DNA from: a virus
Taxonomy: Duplodnaviria > Caudoviricetes
Length of the DNA stretch: 64,000 nucleotides
Virus record (IMG/VR): IMGVR_UViG_3300035182_001152
Reading direction: 5' to 3' (one strand)
The translations under genes were made by a program, and so were the position numbers. The notes below the pieces were generated by a model that saw only the letters and a list, made by a program, of their open reading frames with translations, had not been told where the DNA came from and ran no database searches. This document shows positions 4 through 14,749 of the stretch, piece by piece; position 1 is the first letter of the stretch, and the number at the start of each line of letters is the position of its first letter.

Positions 4-207
4 ATGTCAGAAAACCTAAGTACAAAAACGACGACATCCCCTGCGGTTCCGAATGTGAACCCAGGAGACCCAATTACGTCTACCACGTTTGAAGCAATGC
101 TGAACGTGTTGAACGAACTCGTGAACCACACTCACATTTTCTACGACGACTACAGCACTGCGTGCAACTGTAACTGCAACTGCGCCTGTTCACGCGGCAT
201 CCTCTAA
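4..207 (+). CDS. Cys-rich putative RiPP precursor / radical SAM substrate peptide (67 aa)
   Basis: Leader-like N-terminus with HTH motif, C-terminal core DDYSTACNCNCNCACSRGIL; directly upstream of rSAM operon. Confidence 0.75.
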   Translation: MSENLSTKTTTSPAVPNVNPGDPITSTTFEAMLNVLNELVNHTHIFYDDYSTACNCNCNCACSRGIL

Positions 208-225
208 CAGAGGCGTTATAACCAT

Positions 226-1122
226 ATGAAATACATCCTTGTTCGCCAAGGAGGTAATCGTGCTTCTGCCTTCTCAGACATCGTTGAGCAGGTCAATTAT
301 CAAGACGTACCCCAGGTTGGCTTCTACACGCAAGTAGCACCGAGTATGCGGTTAATTCGTAACCGCACTACCGACAATCACGATTCCCCCTTTGCGATTG
401 CCCGATTCCACGTCGACCCAGCACTGAAGGTCCAGCCTCCGTCACACTTTCGTCGAATTGACATGAGGGCTGTCGAACGGATGATGACAAACCACAAGTA
501 CGTGATATACGGTGTCGTCAATCCAACTCACCACGTAATTGATCACACAGTCCTTGACGGTGCTGTGTACGTCGCGCGGGATGCTGACGGTAAGTTGATC
601 AATGCCCAAACAGGAGATGTCCTTGGTGACTCCAAGGTAACGTTTATGACGGTGTTCTTTGCGTTTGTGCGCGTCAAGGGGTTGCCGATCTATCTGATGG
701 TACTCAATCCAAATCTACTCAGTGCGACGGATGGGTTTGATTGTTATCACGAAGAAACGGACACCAAGTGGATCATGTTGCCGGAACGTGACAACGCGCT
801 GATCGAGCGAGTGTTTACGCCGCAAATATATGACGGCACGTTGATTGGTAATGTGATTGTGCGCGATGAGGGTGATGGACAGCCGATGATCCAACTGTTC
901 AACGATCCATGCGGCATCCTGTACGACGAAAAGCACCTTCGCTCTGATGTGTTCATTAACGGTGTCGCAACGATTGATACCAATCTAAGCGTGTTTACAA
1001 TGGACGGCGCTGTCCGCATTAGCAGTCAAGGCCGTGGGTACGTTCGAATTGTATTTGACCTTGGTGACTACTTCAATCTGTCACGGACCGAACACCCTGC
1101 ACTGGAGTACGTCGTACTATGA
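226..1122 (+). CDS. Hypothetical protein in rSAM operon (298 aa)
   Basis: Long ORF, ATGA overlap with next gene; no family recognised. Confidence 0.8.
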   Translation: MKYILVRQGGNRASAFSDIVEQVNYQDVPQVGFYTQVAPSMRLIRNRTTDNHDSPFAIARFHVDPALKVQPPSHFRRIDMRAVERMMTNHKYVIYGVVNPTHHVIDHTVLDGAVYVARDADGKLINAQTGDVLGDSKVTFMTVFFAFVRVKGLPIYLMVLNPNLLSATDGFDCYHEETDTKWIMLPERDNALIERVFTPQIYDGTLIGNVIVRDEGDGQPMIQLFNDPCGILYDEKHLRSDVFINGVATIDTNLSVFTMDGAVRISSQGRGYVRIVFDLGDYFNLSRTEHPALEYVVL

Positions 1123-2789
1123 GCACAGCTGTCATTAAGTTCTACCCAAAGCGAACACTAACGCAAGCCCAACAGCAACGGATTGTTGATCACCAACCTT
1201 CCGTGCGAATCAATGACGACGGCACATTTGATACGTCTGTCCGCACAATCATCACCCCAAAAGGCGATGTCAAGGAGGTGTCGTATAAGACGATTCGTCC
1301 AGGTGTGCACGAGCGAATGATGAAGACAGCTGACGTATATGACTTGTTTGAAGACCTTCAACACATGAACCTGATTGTCACAAACGCGTGTAACCTCAGT
1401 TGTTCCTACTGCTACGAGCAGCATAACAAAGATTACGGTCGATTCACAAACGAAAGCCTAAAACAGCTATACAACTTCCTCGTCGCGTGCAACCCAAACA
1501 GCGGCAAGCTGTTTCAGTTCTTTGGTGGCGAACCCCTGATCCACAAGCAGTTGATTCTCGATTTTATCGCCAAATATCGTGACGAACTGCAGGCAAACAG
1601 TAAGACAACTGCCGTTAGCATTATCACCAACGGTATTCTGTTAACGCCAGAATTCATCAACGAGTACTTTGCGAATGACTTCGTTTGTATGAGCGTTAGC
1701 CTCGATACGGATGATGCTGAGATTGATCACCGTGAGATTGGCCAGGCTCGGATCGACAAAATCATCAACATGATTGGTCTAATCCCCTCGTACCACAAAG
1801 ACAATCATATGGTTAGCGTCCGTTGCACGATCGCAATGGAGAATGCTCCGCGGCTAGTTGAGTTCGCCAAACGCTTGTATGACAAGGGTCTTCGAGCAAT
1901 GGTAATTCATCCGCTGACGATGAGTTCCGTTAACGGCCACATGATATGGAATACTGAAGATTGGAACAACCTCCACACTAGCGTTAGCCACATCATCAAG
2001 ACGCTGCCTAACTTCGAGGTTCAATTCTCAGAGGGTGTCGGTGCCAAGGGCGGCAACAACTGCATGGTTGGTTCTGACATGATCGCTGTTGACGCGTCGG
2101 GTGATTACTCCGGTTGCCATTTCTTCACAAACCAGAAGGAGGCGGCCGCTCATACGATCCTTGGTAACTTGCTGCTGGACCAAGTGTACGTTGACCGGTA
2201 CATGAAGTTCCAAGAAACGTACGACCAGATGTTCACATCGGAGCCACAATGTCAAGCCTGCGATCTCAAGGGTTTCTGCTACCAATGCCCTGCAGGCAAT
2301 TCTGATTCTGGTCGTGGCCAGCTGTTCCGGCCAGACGATATGTGCCAGAGCATTGTACGTCTGTTCCTCGAACTGCAGAATGACATCGTGCGCAAGACAT
2401 TCAACGCTAAGCTACAGGAGCTGATTGGTTCTGTACAGCAGTACGGTGAACACTATGTGTTCAGTAAGGCAATTGTACACCTCCACCACTTCTACAAGAA
2501 TGGTCAGCATGCCACTGACGTTCAAGTTGATCCCAACCTCCCATACGAATACCTCGCCGCCGGTTTTATGGCAACAATTACCGGTGGCGACGCTAGCGTT
2601 CCGGTTGACATCAAGAGTTTGTATGAGGCGTTGATGCGCAGTAAGGGCAAACCAGTTAACGCGAGTATGGCACAGGGTACAGCTGATGACATCAACAAGC
2701 GTATCTTCTACCTAGCCCTACTACACATGGTTGTGCTGAACAAGAAGGGTGATGACTTGTCAAAACCGCACAAAATCATTAAGCTGTAA
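1119..2789 (+). CDS. Radical SAM/SPASM maturase
   Basis: CNLSCSYC, GGEP, ITNG, VSLD; SPASM Cys set CMVG..DASGDYSGC and CQACDLKGFCYQC..C. Confidence 0.93.
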   Translation: MSTAVIKFYPKRTLTQAQQQRIVDHQPSVRINDDGTFDTSVRTIITPKGDVKEVSYKTIRPGVHERMMKTADVYDLFEDLQHMNLIVTNACNLSCSYCYEQHNKDYGRFTNESLKQLYNFLVACNPNSGKLFQFFGGEPLIHKQLILDFIAKYRDELQANSKTTAVSIITNGILLTPEFINEYFANDFVCMSVSLDTDDAEIDHREIGQARIDKIINMIGLIPSYHKDNHMVSVRCTIAMENAPRLVEFAKRLYDKGLRAMVIHPLTMSSVNGHMIWNTEDWNNLHTSVSHIIKTLPNFEVQFSEGVGAKGGNNCMVGSDMIAVDASGDYSGCHFFTNQKEAAAHTILGNLLLDQVYVDRYMKFQETYDQMFTSEPQCQACDLKGFCYQCPAGNSDSGRGQLFRPDDMCQSIVRLFLELQNDIVRKTFNAKLQELIGSVQQYGEHYVFSKAIVHLHHFYKNGQHATDVQVDPNLPYEYLAAGFMATITGGDASVPVDIKSLYEALMRSKGKPVNASMAQGTADDINKRIFYLALLHMVVLNKKGDDLSKPHKIIKL

Positions 2790-3577
2790 TGATGAAAACA
2801 ACACACATTGCATTTTACCAAGACGCTCTGTACGACTGTCCTCTTCTCCGTGGTCAGGTGCTAACCGATATCGACGACCTGCGACTGTTCATGGAATATC
2901 ACGCATTCGCAGTGTGGGATTTCATGTCGCTGATCAAATCGCTCCAGAACCATATTGTACCGTCGGGCAATGTGTGGCTTCCGTCACCCGAATCGACAGC
3001 TGTTGGTCGATTGATCAACGAAATTGTCCTGTGCGAGGAAACAGACGACAACCTCGGCGGTGGTCATATTAGCCACTTCGATCTGTACATCACTGCGATG
3101 AATGAAGTTGGCGCCAACACAAAGCCGATCCTGTCATTCATCAACAAACTGCGAACCAATCGCAAGCTCAGCTTAAACCAGTTGCTGCTAGAACTCCCTC
3201 TGCCAGCACGGAAGTTCTGTGAGAGTACTTTTGCAGTAATTGCTACCGATCAACCCCATAAGATTGCCGGGGCGTTCGCCTTTGGTCGCGAACGGGTAAT
3301 CCCGTCAATGTTCACGCAGATCCTCTCTCAGATGGAGGCCACTGGAATCCAAGCACCAAAGTTCAAGTACTACCTTGAGCGTCACATTGACGTTGACGGG
3401 AACGCACACGGCCCAGCTGCGCTTGATATGGTTGATTATCTGTGTGGGGATGACCCAGTCAAGCACCTGGAAGCGGAACGAGCTGCATTGGATGCAATCC
3501 ACGCTCGGATCACGCTATGGAAGGACGTACAGCGAGTGATTGAAGACGTCAAGCGTGTCAAGTTTGGAGCAGCATGA
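2789..3577 (+). CDS. DUF3050 family heme-oxygenase-like (putative diiron) oxidase
   Basis: Motifs FMEYHAFAVWDFMSLIKSLQ, EIVLCEETD, SHFDLY, FGRE, YYLERHIDVDG..HGP. Confidence 0.85.
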   Translation: MMKTTHIAFYQDALYDCPLLRGQVLTDIDDLRLFMEYHAFAVWDFMSLIKSLQNHIVPSGNVWLPSPESTAVGRLINEIVLCEETDDNLGGGHISHFDLYITAMNEVGANTKPILSFINKLRTNRKLSLNQLLLELPLPARKFCESTFAVIATDQPHKIAGAFAFGRERVIPSMFTQILSQMEATGIQAPKFKYYLERHIDVDGNAHGPAALDMVDYLCGDDPVKHLEAERAALDAIHARITLWKDVQRVIEDVKRVKFGAA

Positions 3578-4647
3578 CGACACCAACACTCTCCGGATGC
3601 AAGAATATCAGCATCTACCTCGGCAATGTTTGCAACTTCAATTGCACATATTGTGACAGAGACTACATCAAGGAGTCGATCGGTGGTCAACATATGACCA
3701 CCGAGGATATTCCAAAGATCGTTGAGTTCCTCCAAGCTTCTGGTATAGCTGACAACCCCCCGGAAATGTTTAGCTTCCATGGTGGTGAGCCGTTCACATA
3801 CGTCAAGATCATGGACAAAATCATGGACGCAGTAACGTCAGCTGTCCCTGGCGACTATCCGCTATACATTCAAACGAATGGTAGCCAGATGCTTCAGCAT
3901 CGATGGTTCTTTGAGAAGTGGGGTAGTCGCCTTGAGATTAGCATCAGCTACGACTTCTTGTACCAAGACATTAACCGCACCCTGTTTGAGATCAACCCTA
4001 CGCTGGAAATGTTGAACCAGAACGGTGTTCGTGGAATCCAGTTCCAATACGTGATGCCAATCTCTAATCCGAAGGTGTTTAGCCTATCAGCATTGAAGGC
4101 GATCACTAACTTGTGCCACAAGAACGGTGTCAAACGGGTTAACCTAATCCCACTGCGGCACATTCGGGGCAAAGACAAGTTCAAGGTGATCCTTGACGAC
4201 CTTGATATTCCACAGTTCTTCGATGCGTTCATCAAGTTCATCCACATGCTGTATGTGATGAACATTGACGTTACAGTTGATGGTCACGGTGTTGGATTTG
4301 ACAAGCACTATTTCTACAACCATAAGTTAATGGTGTTGTCACCAGATGGTAACATCTATCCCGAATACGACTTCCTCGAATACAAGCGCGAAGAGACGAT
4401 CATCGGTCAGTGGCGAGAGCAGCAAGTTATCGAGCGTGTCCGTGATAATGAAGATGACATGCTGCAACCGAAGTGTGTTACGTGCCCATCCCGCCCACTG
4501 TGTGGGCTAAAGTACTTACATGGGATGTTTGGTACTGACCCAGCAACGGATAAGTGTGCGCAGTTCTATCAGATGCTGATGGTTACGATCCAGCACGCAC
4601 AAAAACTAAAACAACAACCAAGCTTCTTGCATTGGGTCGGAATATGA
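3574..4647 (+). CDS. Radical SAM protein with partial SPASM
   Basis: CNFNCTYC, HGGEP, QTNG; C-terminal CVTCPSRPLC..C; DGNIYPE instead of DGxxYPC. Confidence 0.9.
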   Translation: MTTPTLSGCKNISIYLGNVCNFNCTYCDRDYIKESIGGQHMTTEDIPKIVEFLQASGIADNPPEMFSFHGGEPFTYVKIMDKIMDAVTSAVPGDYPLYIQTNGSQMLQHRWFFEKWGSRLEISISYDFLYQDINRTLFEINPTLEMLNQNGVRGIQFQYVMPISNPKVFSLSALKAITNLCHKNGVKRVNLIPLRHIRGKDKFKVILDDLDIPQFFDAFIKFIHMLYVMNIDVTVDGHGVGFDKHYFYNHKLMVLSPDGNIYPEYDFLEYKREETIIGQWREQQVIERVRDNEDDMLQPKCVTCPSRPLCGLKYLHGMFGTDPATDKCAQFYQMLMVTIQHAQKLKQQPSFLHWVGI

Positions 4648-5828
4648 CAACAGAACAACGGCACTTCACACCCAGTGTACAGAACGTAACGAACTTCAAG
4701 GAATACTTCCTACAGTACGACGGGTTGAATCACGTCAGCCAAGAGCTTGGCTTTTCCCTGTTTAAGCGGTACACGTGTAAAGCAGGATGCAAGATGTGTT
4801 ACTTGCAGAACGACTGGATCGCTGACGAAGACTTCGGTATCTTCATTCCAAAGGAAATTGACGATCACACTGAAGCTCGCCTTTTGTCATTCTTTGAAGC
4901 GTTTTCTGACGTCGGCACGTATGATGATTTGGCATATTTGAAACGAGCGCACCCACACCTGTATGAGTTCTACAAGAAGCACAGCCACCGCCTCGTTAAT
5001 ACATCAATGTCAGACACCGCTTTCATTCAGCAGTACCCACTGCTGATGAATGAGCTCAACTTCAAGGGAATCTACGAGATTACGTTTAGTGATGTGTTCC
5101 TAAACAAAAAGAGTGGTGGCTTAGCGCATGATATAGTCAATATGCTGAAGCCTCTCCACGCAAAGATGCCCCTGCTAAAGATCAAGGTTGTACGAATCAC
5201 ACAGGAAGGTGAGAAGTCTGATGCCGTCAAGAAGGTCGTCGACTATGCACACAGTATTGGCATAGCAGTTGGCCTGCAAGACGATATCGTCAAGGGCGAC
5301 AACAACAAGTTGAGCCTTGATGTTGCTGACTACCAAGAGCTGAATTATTTCGCTCAAGGGTCTGAGCCGATGCAGGTCCTATCAGAGATTACCTACCTGC
5401 AATACACGTCGTCGTTTATGACCCTGACCGACACAGTATCGCCAACAAGTGTTCCATTCTTTGATGTATTGTCAACGGACGACATCAGCGTATTCCTGTA
5501 CAACTCCTTAGATGCTAAGTTAAAGACGTACACCCGATACACCAAGGAAATGGATAACACATGCGGCAACAAGCTGTTCGACTACTTTGCGTACGTATCA
5601 ACGTCGGTTGTGCTACATCCAAAGTTTAACTTCATCCCCCGGATGTCGCTGAAGCCGTGGACGGCAATGTACCATAAGCTGATAGCTCAGGGTTGGACGG
5701 AGACCAAGCTTGGTCTGTATCGACCGAACGGTGAGCCAGTGACACCAATCTTTACGATCAGCACAAAGCCAAAGCAGAAAATCTATCACATCCCAATCAA
5801 GTGCACTCCTGTAGGAGCAACTGTATGA
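4644..5828 (+). CDS. Divergent radical SAM-like protein
   Basis: CKAGCKMC motif; start moved to ATG 4644 (ATGA overlap); no SPASM Cys set. Confidence 0.7.
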   Translation: MTTEQRHFTPSVQNVTNFKEYFLQYDGLNHVSQELGFSLFKRYTCKAGCKMCYLQNDWIADEDFGIFIPKEIDDHTEARLLSFFEAFSDVGTYDDLAYLKRAHPHLYEFYKKHSHRLVNTSMSDTAFIQQYPLLMNELNFKGIYEITFSDVFLNKKSGGLAHDIVNMLKPLHAKMPLLKIKVVRITQEGEKSDAVKKVVDYAHSIGIAVGLQDDIVKGDNNKLSLDVADYQELNYFAQGSEPMQVLSEITYLQYTSSFMTLTDTVSPTSVPFFDVLSTDDISVFLYNSLDAKLKTYTRYTKEMDNTCGNKLFDYFAYVSTSVVLHPKFNFIPRMSLKPWTAMYHKLIAQGWTETKLGLYRPNGEPVTPIFTISTKPKQKIYHIPIKCTPVGATV

Positions 5829-7111
5829 GTCTGACCAAATTTGAGATCGTTCGCACAGGCGAACATTTCTACTACAACAACGAGAACAACGGCTTGCTGG
5901 ACGCCAACGGTAACAGCCTTAGCCGTGCTTTTGTACCCCCAGCTGATTGGAATCAGCTGGAAGACCGATTCGGTCGCACAGATGTTGTCAAGAACCCCGA
6001 AACAATCAAGATCACCCTGGGGCACGGTTGCAATTACAGTTGTGGCTACTGCATGCAAAAGGACATTGGCAATCCCGACGAGCGACCGGTCAATGGTCTA
6101 ACACCAATGCTGATCAGCAAGATCCGCCGCCACCTGGATCTGTCTGAGACGACACGGATTGAACTGTGGGGCGGTGAAACGCTACTGTATTGGAAAGACA
6201 TGATGCCGATCATGGAAGAATTTGATCGTGAGGGAGTTACTTGGTACATCCCAACCAATGGTACTCCCCTGATGCACAAGCACATTGACTTCTTCATGAG
6301 GTTGAAGGGCAGGGTTGCAATGGGGATCTCTCATGATGGGCCTGCGCATGAGATTACGCGAGGCAAGGAGTTCCTGCACAAGAAGGTTGACGTGTTCAAG
6401 CGGATCGAAACGGAGTGTGGTGAGCAGGTACAGTACAGCTTCAACCCCGTTATCAGTCGTACAAATTACGATCTGTTCGAGATCAACGACTTCTTTGTTC
6501 GATTCTTTGACGAGCACAGCTTGAAGTACAAACAGCTGAGTTTCGAACTCGGGCGCGTGTACGACGAGACGATGGCAAAGAACTCAACGCACCACGTGAT
6601 CAATGGTGAGCATATCCCAGCGTATAGGGACGTTCTGACGCGATACATGGATGCTCATATTGAGCAATTCCAACGGCTTGGTGGGGTTACACAAGCTCCC
6701 CTACTGGCGAACAATCTGTTCCATACAGGCATGGGCGTTCTCCCGTATGTGCGTTCGCTGCAGGAGCAAAAGGTTCCCTTGTTGAAGACGAACTGCGGGG
6801 TGGACGACAGTCGGTTGATGAGCATGGACACGATGGGCAACGTCCGCACCTGCCAAAACACCGACGAATCGTACAATGGCGGCAACTTGATGTACATCAA
6901 GGGCATTCGAATCCAACGTGTTGATCTCAATCGTGATGCACACTGTGGGTCATGTGAAGTCCGTCGTCTCTGCAAGAGCTCATGCCCACTTGACCTCGGA
7001 TCGGCAACGTTCCAAACCAATTGTGCTGTTGAGAAGACGCACTACCGGGCGATCCAGTTGGCTGCATTCAAGTTGTTGTTTGACAGTGAGATTCGCATGA
7101 TTGGCCAGTGA
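5825..7111 (+). CDS. Radical SAM/SPASM maturase
   Basis: CNYSCGYC, WGGE, PTNG, ISHDG; CGV..DTMGNVRTC and CGSCEVRRLCKSSC..C; start 5825 by ATGA overlap. Confidence 0.93.
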   Translation: MSLTKFEIVRTGEHFYYNNENNGLLDANGNSLSRAFVPPADWNQLEDRFGRTDVVKNPETIKITLGHGCNYSCGYCMQKDIGNPDERPVNGLTPMLISKIRRHLDLSETTRIELWGGETLLYWKDMMPIMEEFDREGVTWYIPTNGTPLMHKHIDFFMRLKGRVAMGISHDGPAHEITRGKEFLHKKVDVFKRIETECGEQVQYSFNPVISRTNYDLFEINDFFVRFFDEHSLKYKQLSFELGRVYDETMAKNSTHHVINGEHIPAYRDVLTRYMDAHIEQFQRLGGVTQAPLLANNLFHTGMGVLPYVRSLQEQKVPLLKTNCGVDDSRLMSMDTMGNVRTCQNTDESYNGGNLMYIKGIRIQRVDLNRDAHCGSCEVRRLCKSSCPLDLGSATFQTNCAVEKTHYRAIQLAAFKLLFDSEIRMIGQ

Positions 7112-7140
7112 TGTCTGACGGAGAGCGGATGTGCAAACCC

Positions 7141-7147
7141 ATAAATA
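7141..7147 (+). promoter_or_regulatory. T4-like late promoter (ATAAATA)
   Basis: Matches TATAAATA core 34 nt upstream of structural gene; same motif precedes other late-type genes. Confidence 0.6.
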
Positions 7148-7180
7148 CTCACACATCCATCTCACGGAGTTAGGCATACA

Positions 7181-8992
7181 ATGACCAATTACGTATTCAA
7201 GCACAGCGACCCTGCAGCAGGTTCGTTTCTAGTTCAAGCAGACCAGATCGACGGTACGTCGCGTCCTGGTAATGCGGCATTGTACATCAACCCCGTCTCA
7301 GGCCTCTCTGCAATCTCAGCCAATTCCTCTCTCGTCTTCGCTGGACAGGGAATTGTTGACTACGGCGAACTAGTGCAGAACAATCTGATCTACTTGATGG
7401 AGCACTTTGCCTATGCAACACGCCCTCTAAAGCCTGTACAGGGTCAGATTTGGTACAAAAACGCAGCAGGTGTAGACCCGTCCTTCCCGAGCGACCCATC
7501 TTCGGTCGGTCTTTATCTGTGGACAGGATCACTCTGGACGCCGATCATTACTGGTGCAGGCGGCGTACTTGACATGGGCGGCGCTCGTGTAGCTAACGTT
7601 GGAGATGCAATATCCGCCGGTGACGCAGTTAGCCGTGGCTACGCAGATGCACGCTACTTGCAGCTGTCTGGCGGCACAATGACCGGTGCAGTTATGGTTG
7701 CATCAGGCAACTGGACATTTAATTCCGGCGTTTCTCTGTCAGTGACAAACGCTCCGACAACCAGTTTGCATGTTGCCAATAAGGCATACGTAGACGCTGC
7801 TTCTGCCACGTCTGCCGGCCTAGTTTCTACTGAAGCTACTACCCGCGCAGCAGCTGATAGCGCACTTTCGTCCAGCATCTCTACGATCAACTCACAACTG
7901 CCAAACTTTGTTCAAGTTACTGGCGATACGATGACAGGCACACTGTCGATCGACTCTGGCGGTGGTATCGTTGCCCTCAACGGTTCCGGCACTATTAGTT
8001 TTGGCTCTCGTCGCTTGCAGCTCGTCGGAGACCCTATTCTAAACACTGACGCGGCAAACCGAATCTACGTTGATACAGCGATCGCTACGGCAATTGCGGG
8101 CGTTGGCGCTGGATCTAGTGATGGTGTAGTTGTTAGTGGTGACTTGAATTCATCAACTGGCGTGTTGACTCTTCAGCGCAGCATGGGTCTCTCAGACGTG
8201 GTTGTAGTCGGCTCGTTCGCTCCATTCTCACACGCCCACCCTGCGACCGCGGTTACATACGATCTGTCGTACGTGTATCCACAAAGCTACTTGACGACGT
8301 CGGAAGTAGGTGACACAGGCTTCCCCAATGTCCAACTGCAAGACATTATTCGCACAATTGACCAAAATTTGACGACATTGAACCGTTGCGTTGTTCGCAA
8401 ATTGGCCGTCGGCGACGGCATAACTACTACATATTCCGTAGGCGCTGTTGGTACCTACACTGTGGGAGATAATCGTCTGCAGGTGTTTGTTGATGGTGTC
8501 AAACAGTACGCTAGTGAGCACGGGATCAGCACTGTTGTATTCACAGATACGGGTATTGGATATCGATCAGTAATCCCAGGCGTCACGGGTGCGCCTCTCG
8601 TGTTCAACATCGCAGTGGACAGTGGTCCTCCAACAACTGTTTCAATTCCAACAGGGGCGGGATACACGTACTTGCAGTATTTCATTGACCTGCAGGCTGC
8701 TTTTAGTACACTGTCTATCCCTGCACAAGTTCGTGCGGACCAATTCTTTGACCGCATTGAGTTGTACTTTGTGTCCAACACTTCAGGTGCAGGATCTAGT
8801 GTATTAGTATCAAACACAGCAGGCCAAGCTTTTACTGTGATTACCACAGCGTCTGCGCCTGTTAACACGTCTGTGACAACGTCATACTCCTACAGCGAAG
8901 TCGGCAACCCTGGTGCAGATTCAACCTCCATCACATTCAACGTAGCACCTGATGCGGGTTCTGTTGTTGAATTTCTAACCTTCCCTGCTTAA
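7181..8992 (+). CDS. Virion structural / tail fibre-like protein
   Basis: N-terminal DYGELVQNNLIYLMEHFA..QGQIWY motif typical of large-phage virion proteins; three DAxxxxYVD-type repeats; Gly/Thr/Ser-rich. Confidence 0.75.
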   Translation: MTNYVFKHSDPAAGSFLVQADQIDGTSRPGNAALYINPVSGLSAISANSSLVFAGQGIVDYGELVQNNLIYLMEHFAYATRPLKPVQGQIWYKNAAGVDPSFPSDPSSVGLYLWTGSLWTPIITGAGGVLDMGGARVANVGDAISAGDAVSRGYADARYLQLSGGTMTGAVMVASGNWTFNSGVSLSVTNAPTTSLHVANKAYVDAASATSAGLVSTEATTRAAADSALSSSISTINSQLPNFVQVTGDTMTGTLSIDSGGGIVALNGSGTISFGSRRLQLVGDPILNTDAANRIYVDTAIATAIAGVGAGSSDGVVVSGDLNSSTGVLTLQRSMGLSDVVVVGSFAPFSHAHPATAVTYDLSYVYPQSYLTTSEVGDTGFPNVQLQDIIRTIDQNLTTLNRCVVRKLAVGDGITTTYSVGAVGTYTVGDNRLQVFVDGVKQYASEHGISTVVFTDTGIGYRSVIPGVTGAPLVFNIAVDSGPPTTVSIPTGAGYTYLQYFIDLQAAFSTLSIPAQVRADQFFDRIELYFVSNTSGAGSSVLVSNTAGQAFTVITTASAPVNTSVTTSYSYSEVGNPGADSTSITFNVAPDAGSVVEFLTFPA

Positions 8993-8993
8993 T

Positions 8994-9377
8994 ATGCGAC
9001 CACAACACCGTCAGATGCTAGACACCATTAAGGCTCTCAGCAGTGAAATTATTCCTGATAACATGACGCGGCAAGAAGATCCAAAGGGCGTGATGGAATG
9101 CTCTCTGTATGCTGCCTTGTATCAGGGAATGTACAACGTTCCACTAGAGATGAACAAATTGATTGAATTCTACGACGAAACTGTCGAAGGATTCTACCAT
9201 ACGATCAATCCGTATATCCTGCTCGGCTGCGCCCTGGAAATCGTTGACAAGGATGTTGCACTGTCAGTACCTGAAGATATGTTCACATTCACTACACGTC
9301 TAATGGATATGTTTGGTCCTTCAATCACTGTTGATCAGTTTCTCTATGAGGTTAACCACGATGTCAACTACGTATAA
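8994..9377 (+). CDS. Hypothetical protein
   Basis: ORF packed in operon; no family recognised. Confidence 0.65.
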   Translation: MRPQHRQMLDTIKALSSEIIPDNMTRQEDPKGVMECSLYAALYQGMYNVPLEMNKLIEFYDETVEGFYHTINPYILLGCALEIVDKDVALSVPEDMFTFTTRLMDMFGPSITVDQFLYEVNHDVNYV

Positions 9378-9966
9378 GTGGGTTACTTTGCTGGATAAGC
9401 CAAATGCTGTCAAAGTTGGCCGCACAATGGGCATTTGTATGGGAAACCCAGCAGATCAATCATACATCCACATGCACGCGGATAGGTTAGTTGCACATTG
9501 TCTTGAAGATTCAAACGGCGTTGCGACTGCTGTATTCTTCCATCACCCTGAATGGGATGCTGTGTCAGCAATTGGTGGAATTCGTGCCGTACCTTTCAAC
9601 AATGGTGAATTTGCTGTGGAGTTTTGTCAACGCTTCAACGAGCTTGGTGTAAAGCGAACGCTTAACTCCTCTGCTCGCAGGGCGGGTTACTGCCAAGTCA
9701 ACGGTTCGTGGACGAATACTCACTTGTTTTCAGAGGGGATGGTTGTTGATCATCCCCTTAATTTGACCAACTTTACCCGACTTCACTCCCTACCCGACAA
9801 CATGACCGTCAACGGTGATCTAATCCTGGCTCGCACGAGTCTGGTATATCTTCCCAAGAATCTGACCGTCAAAGGAACGCTCGATATTCGGTTCAGTCCA
9901 ATCTGGACGCGTCCCGAGGGTCTCAACGTTGAAAAAATTCGTACACACGCCGGAAAAGTGCTGTAA
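9361..9966 (+). CDS. Hypothetical protein with C-terminal LRR-like repeats
   Basis: LPDNMTVNGDLIL / LPKNLTVKGTLDI repeats; start refined to 9361. Confidence 0.7.
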   Translation: MSTTYKWVTLLDKPNAVKVGRTMGICMGNPADQSYIHMHADRLVAHCLEDSNGVATAVFFHHPEWDAVSAIGGIRAVPFNNGEFAVEFCQRFNELGVKRTLNSSARRAGYCQVNGSWTNTHLFSEGMVVDHPLNLTNFTRLHSLPDNMTVNGDLILARTSLVYLPKNLTVKGTLDIRFSPIWTRPEGLNVEKIRTHAGKVL

Positions 9967-9975
9967 AGGAACACC

Positions 9976-10374
9976 ATGTCACAACCAAAAATTCACGCAA
10001 GTGCACTATCTCTGACGGAGGCTTTTCAAGTGGTAGCCAGTGACGAAACCACAGCTCTAACAACGGGCGCTGCAAAGGTAACGTTTCGGATGCCTTATGC
10101 ATTTACGTTGACATATGTGCGCGGTTCTCTGACGACAGCGCAGGCCTCTGGCACCCCGGTTCAGTTTGATGTAAAGATGAACGGCACATCGATTTTTTCA
10201 ACGCTCCCAACGTTTGACAATACGGAAAAGACAACGACAACTGCAGCTACACCAGGTGTATTGTCAAACACCACATTGACGGACGATTCAGAAATCACTG
10301 TTAGCGTCACTGCTGTAGACGGAGCCACTGCTGCAGCTGGATTGAAGGTTTCCTTGATTGGTGCTCGTGCATGA
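9976..10374 (+). CDS. Small virion/tail-associated beta protein
   Basis: Thr-rich, ASDETTALTTG..KVTFRMPYAFTL pattern seen in phage tail proteins; AAGGA RBS. Confidence 0.6.
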   Translation: MSQPKIHASALSLTEAFQVVASDETTALTTGAAKVTFRMPYAFTLTYVRGSLTTAQASGTPVQFDVKMNGTSIFSTLPTFDNTEKTTTTAATPGVLSNTTLTDDSEITVSVTAVDGATAAAGLKVSLIGARA

Positions 10375-11083
10375 TTTCATTCTGAAAGCGACCATTACGT
10401 CGCCTCCGCTTGTCAATCCAACATTTTCAAACGTAGTGCTGTTGATGCACATGGATGGGACAAACGGTAGTACCACATTTACAGACAGCAGTACAACTAC
10501 CAAGACTGCTGTAGCAGGCGGCGCCGCATCAATCAGCACTGCCTCGCTGAAGTTCGGTACGGGCGCGGCGTCTATCTACAACTCCAGTACAGGCAAGGTT
10601 ACTGTCAACTATCACACCGACTTTGAGTTTGGTTCTGGCGACTTTACCATTGAATTCTGGGTGTATTTTACCGACCTGTCATCGTATCCAATGATTATCA
10701 TCAAGAGTACGGGTACGGGTTACTCCCCGTGGACTGTTTTCGTCAATGGTGGATACTTCTGCGCCCGCGTGTTTGATGACGGCACTACACCAACTAAGCA
10801 AGTAGACATTACAGGAACAACAGCAGTGACTACGGGCACGTGGTATTTTGTTCAGCTACGTCGCCGCAGCAACGTCTTCGCTCTAGCCGTTAACGGTGTG
10901 CAAGAGGCTACCACATCTGCTTTGACGTCCTTCAATGTATTCTCTTCAACAGCTGACATTACGCTTGGTAACTATCCGTCAGGCACGGACTCCCCACTGT
11001 ACGGATATATCGACGATCTGCGGTTGATTAAGGGCCAATCTATGGACTTTAACCTGCCAACAGCTGCGTTCCCGAACAGCTAA
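10358..11083 (+). CDS. LamG/concanavalin A-like lectin domain tail protein
   Basis: NVVLLMHMDG, DFEFGSGDFTIEFWVY, GYIDDLRLIKG; start uncertain (ATG 10371 gives only MISF-stop). Confidence 0.8.
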   Translation: MVLVHDFILKATITSPPLVNPTFSNVVLLMHMDGTNGSTTFTDSSTTTKTAVAGGAASISTASLKFGTGAASIYNSSTGKVTVNYHTDFEFGSGDFTIEFWVYFTDLSSYPMIIIKSTGTGYSPWTVFVNGGYFCARVFDDGTTPTKQVDITGTTAVTTGTWYFVQLRRRSNVFALAVNGVQEATTSALTSFNVFSSTADITLGNYPSGTDSPLYGYIDDLRLIKGQSMDFNLPTAAFPNS

Positions 11084-11104
11084 AGCAAATAGTATGATGT
11101 CAAG

Positions 11105-11683
11105 ATGGATATTGACATCGACTTCAAGACAACGTTTGACCCGTGCCGCATTATGAGGCAGGCCATTCCTGCTTCTATGGTCAAAAATGGTGCACTCGTA
11201 AAGCACAACTGTGGGCACTACTTTCAGCAAATTCCAATTGACAAAGTCACGGGATTTGCTGCGATTCCGTATGAAGAGGCGGAAGCTCTTGGGTATTTTA
11301 AGATCGACTTCCTACACTTGTCCGTGTTGGATTCGTTCGACAGCAAGGCTGAAATGCGCGAGATGCTTCAGCGAGAGCCTGATTGGTCAATATTGCTCGA
11401 TGAATCGCAAGTGCCAAAGTTGTTCCACGTTGGTAAGTATGCTGATTTGCTCACACGAATCAAACCAAACTCCGTGCAACAGTTGGCGGATTGTCTTGCC
11501 TTGATTCGCCCTGCGAAGAGATACTTGCTGAGCAAGTATATGAAAGATAAGGACAGCCTGGCCACCCGACGTGAACTATATCAAAAGGTTGAAGGCGCCT
11601 ACTACTTCAAGAAGTCACACGCTATCTCTTACGCGTTAACCATTACACTGCAACTGCACCTAATCTCTCAAGGTCGCCTATAA
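11105..11683 (+). CDS. DNA polymerase III alpha (DnaE)-like fragment
   Basis: MDIDIDF, FKIDFL, LALIRP, YYFKKSHAISYA motifs in only 192 aa. Confidence 0.8.
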   Translation: MDIDIDFKTTFDPCRIMRQAIPASMVKNGALVKHNCGHYFQQIPIDKVTGFAAIPYEEAEALGYFKIDFLHLSVLDSFDSKAEMREMLQREPDWSILLDESQVPKLFHVGKYADLLTRIKPNSVQQLADCLALIRPAKRYLLSKYMKDKDSLATRRELYQKVEGAYYFKKSHAISYALTITLQLHLISQGRL

Positions 11684-11686
11684 ATA
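11679..11686 (+). promoter_or_regulatory. T4-like late promoter TATAAATA
   Basis: Exact T4 late consensus 22 nt before ATG 11708. Confidence 0.65.
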
Positions 11687-11707
11687 CCCCCAACAACGGA
11701 GATTCAC

Positions 11708-12151
11708 ATGCGACTTTTGACAGCAATGCACCCAACAGATAACCAGAAGCGAGTTCTTGCTAAGATCGCCGCCGCTCCTACGCCTACAGTGGCAGCTTCA
11801 GAGATTTCAGCTGATGCAAATCTGGTTGCTGCACGTAATCTGCTGATGAAGCTCGGCATGATCACGTACACTGATGGCAACGCAGAAATGACCGACCAAG
11901 GTCGCAAGGTCGCGACCGACGAAAACATCATCGACCAGGGTGGCGAATTGACGCAGGCTGGTCAGCAGCTTGCCTACTCTGACTCTCAGGGTCAACAGAC
12001 ACCAGACAATGGTGCATCGCCACCCGCTGGGGCTGATGCTGGTCTTGACAGCATGGCGGGGCCGGATGATATGGGAGGCGCTCCGGGAGGAGACCCATTC
12101 AGCATGGAAAGCTACCAGCCAATGTCACTCCTCAAAGAACTGCTCGGCTGA
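11708..12151 (+). CDS. Hypothetical late protein, acidic/Gly-rich C-terminus
   Basis: GGAG RBS, late promoter upstream. Confidence 0.7.
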   Translation: MRLLTAMHPTDNQKRVLAKIAAAPTPTVAASEISADANLVAARNLLMKLGMITYTDGNAEMTDQGRKVATDENIIDQGGELTQAGQQLAYSDSQGQQTPDNGASPPAGADAGLDSMAGPDDMGGAPGGDPFSMESYQPMSLLKELLG

Positions 12152-12640
12152 GGAGCGCGTGCTCATTTCCACGCTTGGTGGAATTGGCTTGCGGCGGCGG
12201 CGCTTAATGCTTTTGACTGTTCCCATTGGATACTTGGGAACCGGACCAATGATTCGAGATACAAACTCGATATTGAGTGCACGGTACACTCGCGACGTCA
12301 TGGGTGTCATTCCACGACGAGAGAACTCAATTGAGATTGGATAGTTACCACGATTTGTGGTGTACCATTCTGTCGCTGCTTGAATTACCACTTCTTCGTT
12401 GACGTGCTCAGGGCCGCACAAATCCAGCACATAAGCGCGGATCACTTCATCGTCTGCGTTATCGACAATCACCAGCATCGGCGCCTTTCGATACTGAATC
12501 AGGGTGATGAACGGGAACCCCGCGTAGTCCTTAGGATGTGGTTCTACGATCAGAGGAACTGAGGACTTCTTCCCTTCTCCTGCGGGAACACGTCCCTTTG
12601 TAGCAGGCTTTGGTGTAGTAGTCGCTTTCTTTATGGCCAT
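12125..12640 (-). CDS. Hypothetical phage protein
   Basis: Start refined to 12640 (GGAG RBS; ATAAATA at 12667-12661). Confidence 0.7.
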   Translation of the reverse strand: MAIKKATTTPKPATKGRVPAGEGKKSSVPLIVEPHPKDYAGFPFITLIQYRKAPMLVIVDNADDEVIRAYVLDLCGPEHVNEEVVIQAATEWYTTNRGNYPISIEFSRRGMTPMTSRVYRALNIEFVSRIIGPVPKYPMGTVKSIKRRRRKPIPPSVEMSTRSSAEQFFEE

Positions 12641-12752
12641 ATGATTCTCCGAGTTGCGGCTATTTATGGCACGGTTACACAGGGGGCAATACAGTATCAG
12701 GGTATTGGTGCCAGGTGAAAAAGTGCAGGTAAATATCCGAACAGGAGATTTT

Positions 12753-13373
12753 ATGGCCTTCACACTACCAAAACTTGAATACGCCCAGGACGCACTCGAG
12801 CCTCACATTTCGAAGGAAGTGGTCCACTTCCACTACGACAAGCACACAAAAAAGTACTTCGAAAAGGCCAACGAATTGGCAAAGGGCACTGTGTTTGCAT
12901 CGAAATCGCTCGATGATGTGATTTCGAAGACGTCAGTTCTCAAAATGGATACGGCGCTATTTAACAACGTCAGTCAGGCGTTTAATCATGCCTTTTACTG
13001 GAAATGCCTAGCTCCTACCGATAAGGTTGGGAAGCCATCAGAGGCGCTTGCCGAAGCGATTAAGGAGCAGTTTGAAACTGTGGCCAAATTTAAGGCAGAA
13101 TTTATCGAGCAAGCTACGAAAGCATTTGGTTCTGCATGGGTCTGGGCTGTGTTGAAGGACGGCAAGGTCCAAATTAAGACCACCCCAAATGCCAACTCTC
13201 CGCTAACTGAGCAGAACTCAATTCCGTTATTCGTGTGCGATGTGTGGGAGCATGCATGGCTGTATGATGAGAAATTTTGGGCTAATAAGCCAGCTTACCT
13301 CCAGGCCTTCTGGCATGTGTTAAACTGGAACTTTGTTAACGAGAACTTCGAGAATGCCACGACCACCAAATAA
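12753..13373 (+). CDS. sodB: Fe superoxide dismutase
   Basis: Metal ligands in HYDKH, FNHAFYW, DVWEHA; Fe-type SQAFNH and NANSP signatures; AGGAG RBS. Confidence 0.92.
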   Translation: MAFTLPKLEYAQDALEPHISKEVVHFHYDKHTKKYFEKANELAKGTVFASKSLDDVISKTSVLKMDTALFNNVSQAFNHAFYWKCLAPTDKVGKPSEALAEAIKEQFETVAKFKAEFIEQATKAFGSAWVWAVLKDGKVQIKTTPNANSPLTEQNSIPLFVCDVWEHAWLYDEKFWANKPAYLQAFWHVLNWNFVNENFENATTTK

Positions 13374-13940
13374 ATTCCGAGAAGCTGCAAGGTTGATGCA
13401 CAGTGTTCGGTTTTTGATCCAACCCCGTGCCCAAAGGGCCACGTTGCAGAACGCCTAACCTCTAGTGGAATCTGCGTTGTTTGCAATAACGAAAAGACAA
13501 AGCGCCTGTATCACAGTAACGCAAAAATTCGCGCACGAGCTTGCGAAACTAGTCGAGCCCACCATGAAAATGTTGGCACCAAATGGTATCACGACAATAA
13601 AGTTCGTGCCTCCCAATTAAACAAGGCGTGGAGGGAAGAACACCGAGATGAGTTCAGCAAATATACGGTTCAGTGGCGCCGAGCTAACCTCGACAAGTTA
13701 ACAAAAAATGCAAGCGCTTATCGTGCATCAAAGCTGCTGGCTACCCCTTCTTGGGCCGATCACGATAAGATTCAGCAATTCTACACTGAAGCTCAGCGGC
13801 TGACTAAAGAAACTGGAATCAAGTACACAGTGGATCACCAGATTCCATTGAACAGTGATCTCGTTTGTGGATTGCACGTAGAGCACAACCTACAGCTGCT
13901 AACGCTGTCGGAGAATAGTGCCAAAGGTAACAGATTATGA
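13354..13940 (+). pseudogene. HNH endonuclease with frameshift (absent from ORF track)
   Basis: Manual translation: MPRPPNKFREAARLMHSVRF / DPTPCPKGHVAER..CVVC ... VDHQIPLNSDLVCGLHVEHNLQLL..ENSAKGNRL; frame change at T5 13411-13415. Confidence 0.8.
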
Positions 13941-14749
13941 TTGACGAAGAACAACTGACAGAAGAGCAGATTGACGCTCGTATTGCCGAGAAGAAGGCGG
14001 AATCAAAGCCGCGAGGCCGTCCCAAGAACGCAAGTTACCTTCCGTGGGAAGAAGCTCGCGAATTCGTTCGTGGAGAAATGTTGCCGTCGCGCGGCAAGTA
14101 CTTTGAATGGTGGGACCGCAATAAGCCAAAGACAATCCCCCGCTTCCCATACCGCGTATACACTGGTGAGAACGAATGGGTTTCGTGGAACGATTTTCTC
14201 GGCACGAACAACAAGTTCAACGACAAGGTTGGGACGAAGTGGCGACCATTCTTGGAAGCAACTGGATGGGCTCTCAAACTCAACCTGAAGTCTCAAGGCG
14301 AGTGGATGGAATACTGTAGGATTGAGGACCAGCTACCAAAGGACATTCCTGCCCGCCCCGACCTCGTCTATGACGAATGGCGTAGCTGGGGACATTGGCT
14401 TGGTAACCGCCCCGTTGAAGCAATTCAAGCTAAGCAGGAAGTTGCACAAAAAGTTCAAGTGTTCTACATTATCCACGATCCGGAACATGCAGCACAAAAC
14501 ATTCTACGCTTTGGTGTTGATCCGGCAGGCCTGACGTCTATGAAGGCTCGCTGGGAAGACCAACAGTTTACAATCGTTAAACTGTTCTGGTATGATCCTG
14601 CGAAGAGTGCGATTATCAATCAGATCGTCGAAACCTTCTCACGACCATACCAGGGAAATACCAGCGAGCGCATCGTTCCCAATGTGTGGGAAATTGTGTA
14701 CCATCTTCAGATGCATCTGGACCAGATTACATCCAAAGACGTACAGTGA
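13937..14749 (+). CDS. Integrase-repeat (INT_rpt-like) protein
   Basis: Two repeats of the form PxxPxxVYxxEWxSWxxxLG. Confidence 0.65.
   Translation: MIDEEQLTEEQIDARIAEKKAESKPRGRPKNASYLPWEEAREFVRGEMLPSRGKYFEWWDRNKPKTIPRFPYRVYTGENEWVSWNDFLGTNNKFNDKVGTKWRPFLEATGWALKLNLKSQGEWMEYCRIEDQLPKDIPARPDLVYDEWRSWGHWLGNRPVEAIQAKQEVAQKVQVFYIIHDPEHAAQNILRFGVDPAGLTSMKARWEDQQFTIVKLFWYDPAKSAIINQIVETFSRPYQGNTSERIVPNVWEIVYHLQMHLDQITSKDVQ

Follow-up and report, generated by a model that had tools for sequence, protein, structure and literature searches.

Radical S-adenosylmethionine (SAM) enzymes with a SPASM domain are known as maturases from bacterial and archaeal systems, both from the biosynthesis of RiPPs (peptides that are ribosomally synthesised and modified after translation) and from protein maturation. 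PapB, QhpD and SCIFF/CteB form bonds, within peptides or small proteins, between a cysteine sulfur and a carbon of a side chain or of the backbone, and the acceptors used by PapB and QhpD are Asp and Glu. The enzyme NxxcB links Cys to the β-carbon of its native acceptor Asn and also accepts Ala, Gln and Asp (PMC9389541), and in the CrpC/CrpA pair a SPASM enzyme installs thioethers on a whole protein and not on a released peptide (PMC13692751). The maturation of a Cys-rich ribosomal product by a SPASM enzyme is thus already known as a kind, whereas the gene cassette reported here is so far unnamed and, in the papers and curated families searched, undescribed. It occupies positions 4-7111 of a 64,000-nucleotide stretch of viral DNA, referred to as the window (IMG/VR record IMGVR_UViG_3300035182_001152; Duplodnaviria, Caudoviricetes), and encodes a 67-residue peptide with a C-terminal run of alternating cysteines followed by six genes, four of them for proteins with a radical SAM motif. 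On balance we favour the reading that this is a jumbo-phage cassette which lies in a tail-fibre and baseplate gene block and serves the radical SAM-dependent maturation of a small tail-associated protein, whose Cys tail becomes cross-linked and which remains uncleaved. Three traits set it apart: it is phage-specific, it has four radical SAM enzymes for one substrate, and its "leader" is fibre-derived and encoded among tail genes.

All gene coordinates and strands in the following list are positions in the window, and the whole cassette lies on the plus strand.

4..207, plus strand: 67-residue small protein (the peptide), an open reading frame (ORF) call; the frame stays open up to the window edge; homologues, however, share the start Met
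226..1122, plus strand: 298-residue all-beta protein with an immunoglobulin (Ig)-like C-terminal domain, core cassette member (iterative hidden Markov model (HMM) search, AlphaFold 2 (AF2) model)
1119..2789, plus strand: rSAM556, a 556-residue radical SAM/SPASM enzyme (Pfam Radical_SAM 8e-16, 59.1 bits)
2789..3577, plus strand: DUF3050 protein of 262 residues, MgoB/PvfA-type, heme-oxygenase-like, optional accessory (PF11251 2e-81, 273.5 bits)
3574..4647, plus strand: rSAM357, a 357-residue radical SAM enzyme (Pfam Radical_SAM 4e-10, 40.4 bits)
4644..5828, plus strand: 394-residue divergent radical-SAM-like protein (C45-x3-C49-x2-C52, AF2 fold; PHROG 36229, unknown function)
5825..7111, plus strand: rSAM428, a 428-residue radical SAM/SPASM enzyme (Pfam Radical_SAM 3e-8, 34.4 bits; NCBIfam SPASM domain 2.5e-4)
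7181..8992, plus strand: 603-residue fibre-like virion protein, context outside the enzyme set (PHROG matches to virion structural and head-decoration families)

The original prediction, made from the DNA letters, had described six translationally coupled genes behind the peptide, among them four CxxxCxxC proteins, two with complete SPASM Cys sets, and one DUF3050 gene. The ORFs and their overlaps were verified in the DNA, with ATGA overlaps at 1119, 3574, 4644 and 5825 and TAATG at 2789; the spacer between the peptide gene and the 298-residue gene measures 18 nucleotides (nt) and contains AGAGG. The Cys sets were borne out by the conservation of these residues among homologues, as detailed below, and the DUF3050 assignment by the Pfam match listed above, so that what had been observed holds in all details. 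With Pfam cut-offs of 29.5 bits for Radical_SAM (PF04055), 22.2 for DUF3050 (PF11251) and 21.5 for SPASM, rSAM556, rSAM357 and rSAM428 all exceed the PF04055 threshold, and CxxxCxxC is invariant in 28-33 homologues of each.

A scan of IMG/VR with the 556-residue enzyme as query returned 48 loci. In about 43 of these the peptide, rSAM556, rSAM357, the 394-residue protein and rSAM428 follow each other in the same order at 40-78% identity. Such conservation of the cassette, with peptide and enzymes together in about 43 viral contigs at 40-70% protein identity, is far beyond chance. The peptide and the radical SAM genes form one conserved unit, as had been proposed: all related loci with a contig that extends far enough upstream contain the peptide. 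Because of this strict co-occurrence we take the peptide to be the substrate of the radical SAM enzymes, and it is probable that the Cys tail is the part on which the enzymes of the cassette act.

Among isolated phages, DNA relatives were found only in the Ralstonia jumbo phages RP12 and RP31. ORF075-080 of RP12 are the same six genes with DUF3050 relocated to the end, and an unannotated 65-residue ORF (NC_041911.1, 82888-83085, plus strand; L001:6058-6255 in our locus set) is homologous to the window peptide. This ORF ends in ..HTHVFYDNYGSNCNCNCACTRGSL and lies in the gap between ORF074 and ORF075, its stop abutting the start of ORF075; the RP31 counterpart lies from 79633 onward. The paper on both phages lists the cassette enzymes only as scattered homologues (PMC5468394). 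The window peptide itself sits on a contig of at least 206 kb found in metagenome runs, and the cassette-bearing genome of the window is therefore an uncultured jumbo phage. Its DNA was found in sediment and microbial-mat metagenome runs only, and no RNA dataset is listed with it. A search of 185,579 prokaryotic species genomes recovered close relatives on three contigs only, all of them with the peptide: one from a Bdellovibrio metagenome-assembled genome, one Ewingella americana scaffold of 253 kb and one short contig from Phycisphaerales. The Bdellovibrio and Ewingella sequences keep the gene order of peptide, 298-residue protein, rSAM556, rSAM357, 394-residue protein and rSAM428 that is seen in the IMG/VR loci and in RP12/RP31. 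The Ewingella scaffold (Ewingella americana E4 scaffold8.1, L051) carries the cassette at 4653-14150 (plus strand) in a scaffold of a cultured enterobacterium; a TnpB-like ORF of 419 residues adjoins it (2009-3268, minus strand), and its rSAM556 homologue has a 140-residue Gly/Cys/His-rich N-terminal extension.

The peptide is composed of a variable N-terminus, a helix-plus-HxH module (..TFEAMLNVLNELVNHTHIFYDDY..) and the C-terminal tail CNCNCNCAC-SRGIL. An alignment of 34 sequences resolves the same three regions, namely 25 variable residues at the start, then a conserved block ([DA]T[FY][RQ]QML..L..L..H.H.[FY].DDY) and the Cys tail, which follows the pattern C-X-C-X-C(-X-C-X-C) and terminates in x-R-G-x-[LIV]. 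H42, H44, D48, Y50, the last Cys, R64 and G65 are invariant in all 34 homologues. Across 202 distinct family members the run comprises three to six Cys, five being commonest, the residues between them are to 98% Q (35%), N (25%), A (17%), E (15%) or D (5.5%), and the x-R-G-x-x terminus is present in 181. The window tail offers three N-x-x-C registers (N55-C58, N57-C60 and N59-C62); among shorter family members this register is inconsistent.

A profile of the peptide was searched against 1.84 billion proteins, where it matched 84 clusters (50% identity), and against 5.8 billion, where it matched 503 (90% identity); no cluster carries a Pfam domain, and the source names shown all read "hypothetical protein". 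The peptide has no match in Pfam, NCBIfam or PHROG, and a search of the ESM Atlas returned unnamed viral clusters only. Its assignment to no characterised class holds, as neither a curated family in these three collections nor a paper describing the peptide was found. A weak lead from the ESM Atlas (0.76-0.78) is a viral cluster, a quarter of whose members carry a CXXX-repeat family of radical SAM targets. On a contig of megaphage size (543 kb; L045:12292-12675, plus strand), a distant variant of 127 residues combines the helix-HTHTH module with a long, irregular Cys-rich region and adjoins several radical SAM genes, whose identity to the window genes is only 26-28%. Regarding expression, the T4 late-promoter consensus, TATAAATA, precedes the peptide ATG by 29 nt only in the loci L022 (131-138) and L023. 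In most loci the peptide gene is coupled to the gene before it, so that the box allows no general conclusion on timing.

For the enzymes, a SPASM domain was defined by seven conserved Cys after the barrel, including CxxCxxxxxCxxxC, which corresponds to two auxiliary 4Fe-4S clusters. Both rSAM556 and rSAM428 possess this set, while the Pfam SPASM score itself is sub-threshold (13.8 vs 21.5). In rSAM556, the CxxxCxxC motif is located at 91-98 and the auxiliary residues C315, C333, C378, C381, C387, C390 and C409 are conserved in all 33 of 33 homologues. The motif of rSAM428 is found at 69-76, with C324, C343, C374, C377, C383 and C387 conserved in 28/28 homologues and C400 in 21/28. A single four-Cys auxiliary motif (C301, C304, C310 and C328; Cys conserved in 30/30) is present in rSAM357. 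The 394-residue protein has neither a Pfam match nor conserved auxiliary Cys; C45, C49 and C52 are invariant in its 29 homologues (28 sequences in alignment A4). Its AF2 model (predicted local distance difference test score, pLDDT, 90) gave the radical SAM enzymes DesII, SkfB, MoaA, viperin and SuiB as top Foldseek matches, with a probability of 0.99 for the top three (DesII, SkfB; TM only 0.34-0.39) and 0.7-0.84 for the others, the TM scores spanning 0.31-0.39 overall.

The NCBIfam matches of rSAM556 are PapB (1.2e-36), QhpD (3e-23) and the SCIFF maturase (1e-19), together with nif11-type maturases, and the best PDB match is CteB (5wgg, 1e-12); a model for NxxcB is absent among the NCBIfam matches listed. 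The best match, to the PapB family NF047865, reaches 126.7 bits against a cut-off of 340, so that rSAM556 is not a member; the scores are 82.4 vs 453 bits for QhpD (TIGR03906) and 70.3 vs 425 for the SCIFF maturase (TIGR03974). Because all scores are far below the curated cut-offs, rSAM556 represents a new subfamily outside these three families. Its best matches being the peptide and protein maturases PapB, QhpD and SCIFF/CteB, rSAM556 is in line with the predicted SPASM enzyme of the thioether-forming kind, and judged by its sequence it is most likely the thioether-forming maturase of the cassette.

The substrate side agrees with this assignment. As in PapB, CteB/SCIFF and NxxcB systems, CxxxCxxC and a seven-Cys SPASM set occur together with a Cys-rich C-terminal core that is encoded beside the enzyme gene, and the inter-Cys residues N, Q, D, E and A match the acceptors of these enzymes. 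The acceptor logic of radical SAM enzymes thus fits, because 98% of the residues between the Cys correspond to acceptors of NxxcB, PapB and QhpD. In contrast to the C-X3-D/E repeats of PapB precursors and to the SCIFF motif, the core here is strictly C-X-C (X = N/Q/E/D/A), and compared to ranthipeptide/SCIFF systems the cassette differs in its phage host, its four radical SAM enzymes per peptide and its fibre-type leader, with no RiPP recognition element (RRE), protease or exporter detected. As to the nature of the links formed, we lean towards thioethers.

An HMM of the conserved block was used to follow the module beyond the peptide. In most loci it detects a companion protein of 125-140 residues with two module copies and no Cys; ORF074 of RP12 is one of these companions, and in L033 and L036-L038 the companion is encoded inside the radical SAM operon. 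Fibre-like proteins encoded nearby contain one to three copies of the HxH module, and the same D-x-Y trails HxH in Cys-free module proteins. Searched library-wide, the leader profile matches the Cys-free module proteins P0074, P0078, P0079, P0081, P0082 and P0084 (E 1e-6 to 7e-4). The Cys tail, in turn, is found on the two-module proteins P0004, P0027, P0036 and P0052, on a 122-residue protein of Ewingella (L051:6332-6700) and on the three-module protein P0017, while in P0034 a CNCNCNC segment is internal and followed by a poly-Pro linker and a 180-residue domain. By homology, the "leader" of the peptide appears to be a fibre-type module that is shared with structural neighbours.

HxH motifs are frequent in phage fibres and spikes; at the fibre tip formed by T4 gp37 they coordinate iron on the three-fold axis (PMC11705849). 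With an invariant His-x-His in a fibre-gene context as the defining property, H42 and H44 in the 34 sequences qualify as such a motif. The cassette resembles the gp37 sites in that its invariant His-x-His follows a short helix and is repeated one to three times among fibre genes. It differs in that the module spans about 30 residues and is carried on very small proteins, and in that the Cys-X tail is without a counterpart in gp37. The gp37-type arrangement, a trimer with six His around a metal on the three-fold axis, would be a prediction for the module of the cassette. A homotrimer prediction with three copies of the peptide scored 0.09, which counts neither for nor against trimerisation.

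The proximity of HxH and Cys raises the possibility that the Cys-X repeat is a metal or Fe-S ladder, either as a continuation of an HxH site along a trimer axis or in a metallothionein-like manner. The radical SAM enzymes would then assemble the ladder or act elsewhere, for example on fibre proteins, sugars or nucleotides. CxC repeats are well known as motifs for thiolate ligands, and here the invariant HxH, which binds iron in T4 gp37, is located immediately upstream of them; the origin of the window DNA from sediment and microbial mats and a phage Fe/Mn superoxide dismutase gene 5.5 kb downstream would also suit a metal-binding product. However, the restriction to Q, N, E, D and A fits acceptors of hydrogen abstraction better than mere spacers, the nearest families of the enzymes are peptide cross-linkers, and the peptide strictly co-occurs with the radical SAM genes. 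We thus regard a metal ladder as quite improbable. The dismutase (12654-13373, plus strand; Sod_Fe_N 3.5e-26, Sod_Fe_C 3.6e-28) could also protect oxygen-sensitive Fe-S enzymes, such as those encoded upstream, during infection.

Beyond the module itself, the genomic neighbourhood points to the tail. Of six distant loci examined, five resemble the window and RP12 in that the genes flanking the cassette encode fibre, baseplate or virion proteins, and homologues of the 603-residue protein trail the cassette in L002-L006, L017, L039, L040 and L130. In the closest relatives, the gene directly before the peptide encodes a protein of 294 or 452 residues with two modules. That of the closest relative (L002:7518-8876, plus strand) combines two HxH modules with a C-terminal Hint-like start motif (..VLT/CFPAGSFVLMADG..), Hom_end_hint remaining sub-threshold in the 452-residue protein with 29.5 bits vs a cut-off of 32.1. 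Further precursor genes, suspected just upstream of the window edge, were accordingly discarded, as relatives have an HxH-module fibre-like protein at this position, in the closest case the one with the Hint-like end. A Hint-like domain beside a Cys-rich peptide makes autoprocessing or transfer to a nucleophile worth consideration.

These observations bear directly on whether the product is released. In a classical diffusible RiPP, the HxH leader would be removed by a host protease or an unlinked phage protease, and a cross-linked core of 12-16 residues would be set free at lysis or act within infected cells; it could be an antibacterial or anti-defence factor, a signal or a metallophore. The general layout is compatible with this, with a short precursor (only 63-72 residues in most family members) whose N-terminal part is conserved and whose C-terminal core would be modified, enzymes of the SPASM maturase type, and a conserved x-R-G-x-x end that could be a recognition or cleavage signal. 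Yet Cys-free fibre-like neighbours contain repeated modules to which the "leader" is homologous, the Cys tail is also found on proteins of 110-256 residues and internally in P0034, and the cassette lies in or beside tail and baseplate gene blocks in most loci examined. In addition, searches of Pfam, NCBIfam and PHROG recognised no protease or peptidase, exporter or transporter, or immunity families among the cassette proteins, where the lack of a hit is not proof of absence. We consider a released RiPP unlikely and, given the fibre-type leader and the lack of a recognised protease or exporter in the cassette, prefer a cross-linked small tail protein. The idea of a phage pathway modifying one small peptide is hence retained as far as the conserved unit of peptide and radical SAM genes is concerned and abandoned with respect to a classical released RiPP. 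Taken by itself, the claim that the product stays uncleaved and is part of the phage tail falls slightly short of an even call.

Such a cross-linked tail protein would resemble the QhpD/QhpC and CrpC/CrpA pairs, in which a SPASM radical SAM enzyme cross-links Cys to side-chain carbons in a small Cys-rich structural protein. In contrast to these, the cassette comes without a dehydrogenase partner or an archaeal context, the substrate is much shorter and carries a repetitive C-X-C tail, the neighbourhood consists of phage tail fibres, and the match to QhpD stays at the 82.4 of 453 bits given above.

The DUF3050 protein matches 9vwb in the PDB (3e-53), and near-invariant His, Glu and Asp residues are present in its homologues. 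It was found in about 22 of the 43 loci, at varying positions and usually after the last radical SAM gene, so that, in revision of the original prediction, it is an optional accessory. With MgoB/PvfA it shares the Pfam family, the heme-oxygenase-like fold and the conserved His/Glu/Asp residues. The Pseudomonas version, however, occurs with a nonribosomal peptide synthetase and an N-oxygenase, whereas the cassette version, which half of the loci dispense with, is found beside a ribosomal peptide and radical SAM enzymes.

SPASM enzymes also make pyrroloquinoline quinone (PQQ) and mycofactocin, and the cassette could accordingly yield a cofactor or small molecule derived from the peptide, as with PQQ, mycofactocin or cysteine tryptophylquinone (CTQ), with D-x-Y or Cys being excised or converted for redox use by the phage. 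D48 and Y50 are invariant and adjoin the Cys tail, QhpD is the second-best NCBIfam match, and DUF3050 is part of small-molecule operons (mgo/pvf) in Pseudomonas. This route is nevertheless highly improbable: no peptidase, PqqB/C-like or MftD/E-like genes were found in the cassette with Pfam and NCBIfam, DUF3050 is optional, and the D-x-Y after HxH also occurs in Cys-free module proteins and thus belongs to the fold. For comparison, ORF80 of RP12, its DUF3050 protein, has been named MgoB-like (PMC5468394).

The remaining core member, the 298-residue beta protein, has no match in Pfam, NCBIfam or PHROG. Its family, collected by an iterative HMM, is present in one to three copies adjoining the peptide in every viral-contig locus that reaches upstream of the enzymes. 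In the AF2 model (pLDDT 81), only residues 190-298 resemble Ig-like sandwiches (Z up to 5.8), and fold searches of the PDB (Foldseek and VIA-align) and of AFDB clusters gave a generic Ig-like match and no functional lead.

From the gene set and its conservation, the linkage to the peptide, the homology of the module and the tail-gene context we infer the following chemical steps and location in the virion. The N-terminal part of the presumed substrate is the fibre-type module, in which a short amphipathic helix runs into HxH-x-[FY]-x-D-x-Y; in the last 12-16 residues Cys alternates with Asn, Gln, Glu, Asp or Ala, followed by x-Arg-Gly-x-hydrophobic. Up to four radical SAM enzymes may act on this tail, two with two auxiliary Fe-S clusters, one with one and one without. 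In the SPASM enzymes, an auxiliary cluster would hold a Cys thiolate while the 5'-deoxyadenosyl radical takes a hydrogen from a neighbouring Asx, Glx or Ala side chain, giving a stack of short thioether rings in which Cys is probably linked to Asn, Gln, Asp or Glu. The remaining two enzymes may add further radical modifications, the 298-residue beta protein probably presents or receives the substrate, and DUF3050, where present, could contribute an O2-dependent tailoring step. The module would stay attached and anchor the product among the neighbouring HxH fibre proteins on the tail, so that the mature small protein carries a rigid cross-linked tip. In its most specific and more tentative form, the proposal is that of a small trimeric HxH-module protein whose polycyclic thioether (or thiolate-metal) "tip" is built into the fibre or baseplate apparatus.

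Several findings weigh against the favoured maturation of a tail protein. Two reduced relatives keep only part of the set, L130 only rSAM428 and the 298-residue protein and L131 only rSAM556 and rSAM357; one or two of the four radical SAM enzymes are thus retained there, which speaks against an obligatory four-enzyme pathway. The enzymes would therefore act as separable modules on the same tail. In a few family members T, V, L or R is found between the Cys, and no RRE or PqqD domain was detected in any cassette enzyme with Pfam. Since all radical SAM scores lie far below the curated maturase cut-offs, the chemistry could differ, and epimerisation, C-C links or conversion of Cys to formylglycine could occur. 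Finally, ORF68-76 are unlisted in the virion mass spectrometry of RP31 (Table S3, PMC5468394); the survey relied on gel bands and was limited, and its database lacked the peptide ORF, so that it is uninformative on the peptide.

Two further features were noted downstream. Among small genes past the fibre-like protein, a concanavalin A-like/LamG protein is encoded at 10358-11083 (plus strand; Laminin_G_3 2.8e-18), which is probably another tail or adhesion component. The G+C content is about 0.49 in the first 30 kb, 0.57-0.61 at 40-62 kb and 0.49 in the last 2 kb, and the region 30000-62000 may mark a mosaic segment of the phage genome.

A literature search found no paper linking jumbo phages, radical SAM enzymes and a Cys-X peptide, and the jumbo-phage reviews are silent on radical SAM. 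A phage-specific family with four radical SAM enzymes per substrate that is tied to tail-fibre genes is thus undescribed in the papers and curated families searched. With the Ralstonia phages RP12 and RP31, in which the peptide gene is unannotated, a cultured model is at hand and the hypothesis is directly testable. If true, the cassette would represent the first RiPP-type radical chemistry that makes a part of a virion, and may be the first to be tied to a phage tail; it would define a new class of cross-linked peptides by the tail (Cys-Asx/Glx)n-Cys-x-Arg-Gly. For thioether enzymology, (Cys-X)n would be a new substrate motif, and DUF3050/PvfA gains a second, peptide-linked context. Should the product be located in the virion, the question would be why phages use covalently knotted or metal-loaded tips, for which stability in sediment, receptor binding or the piercing of membranes are possible reasons.

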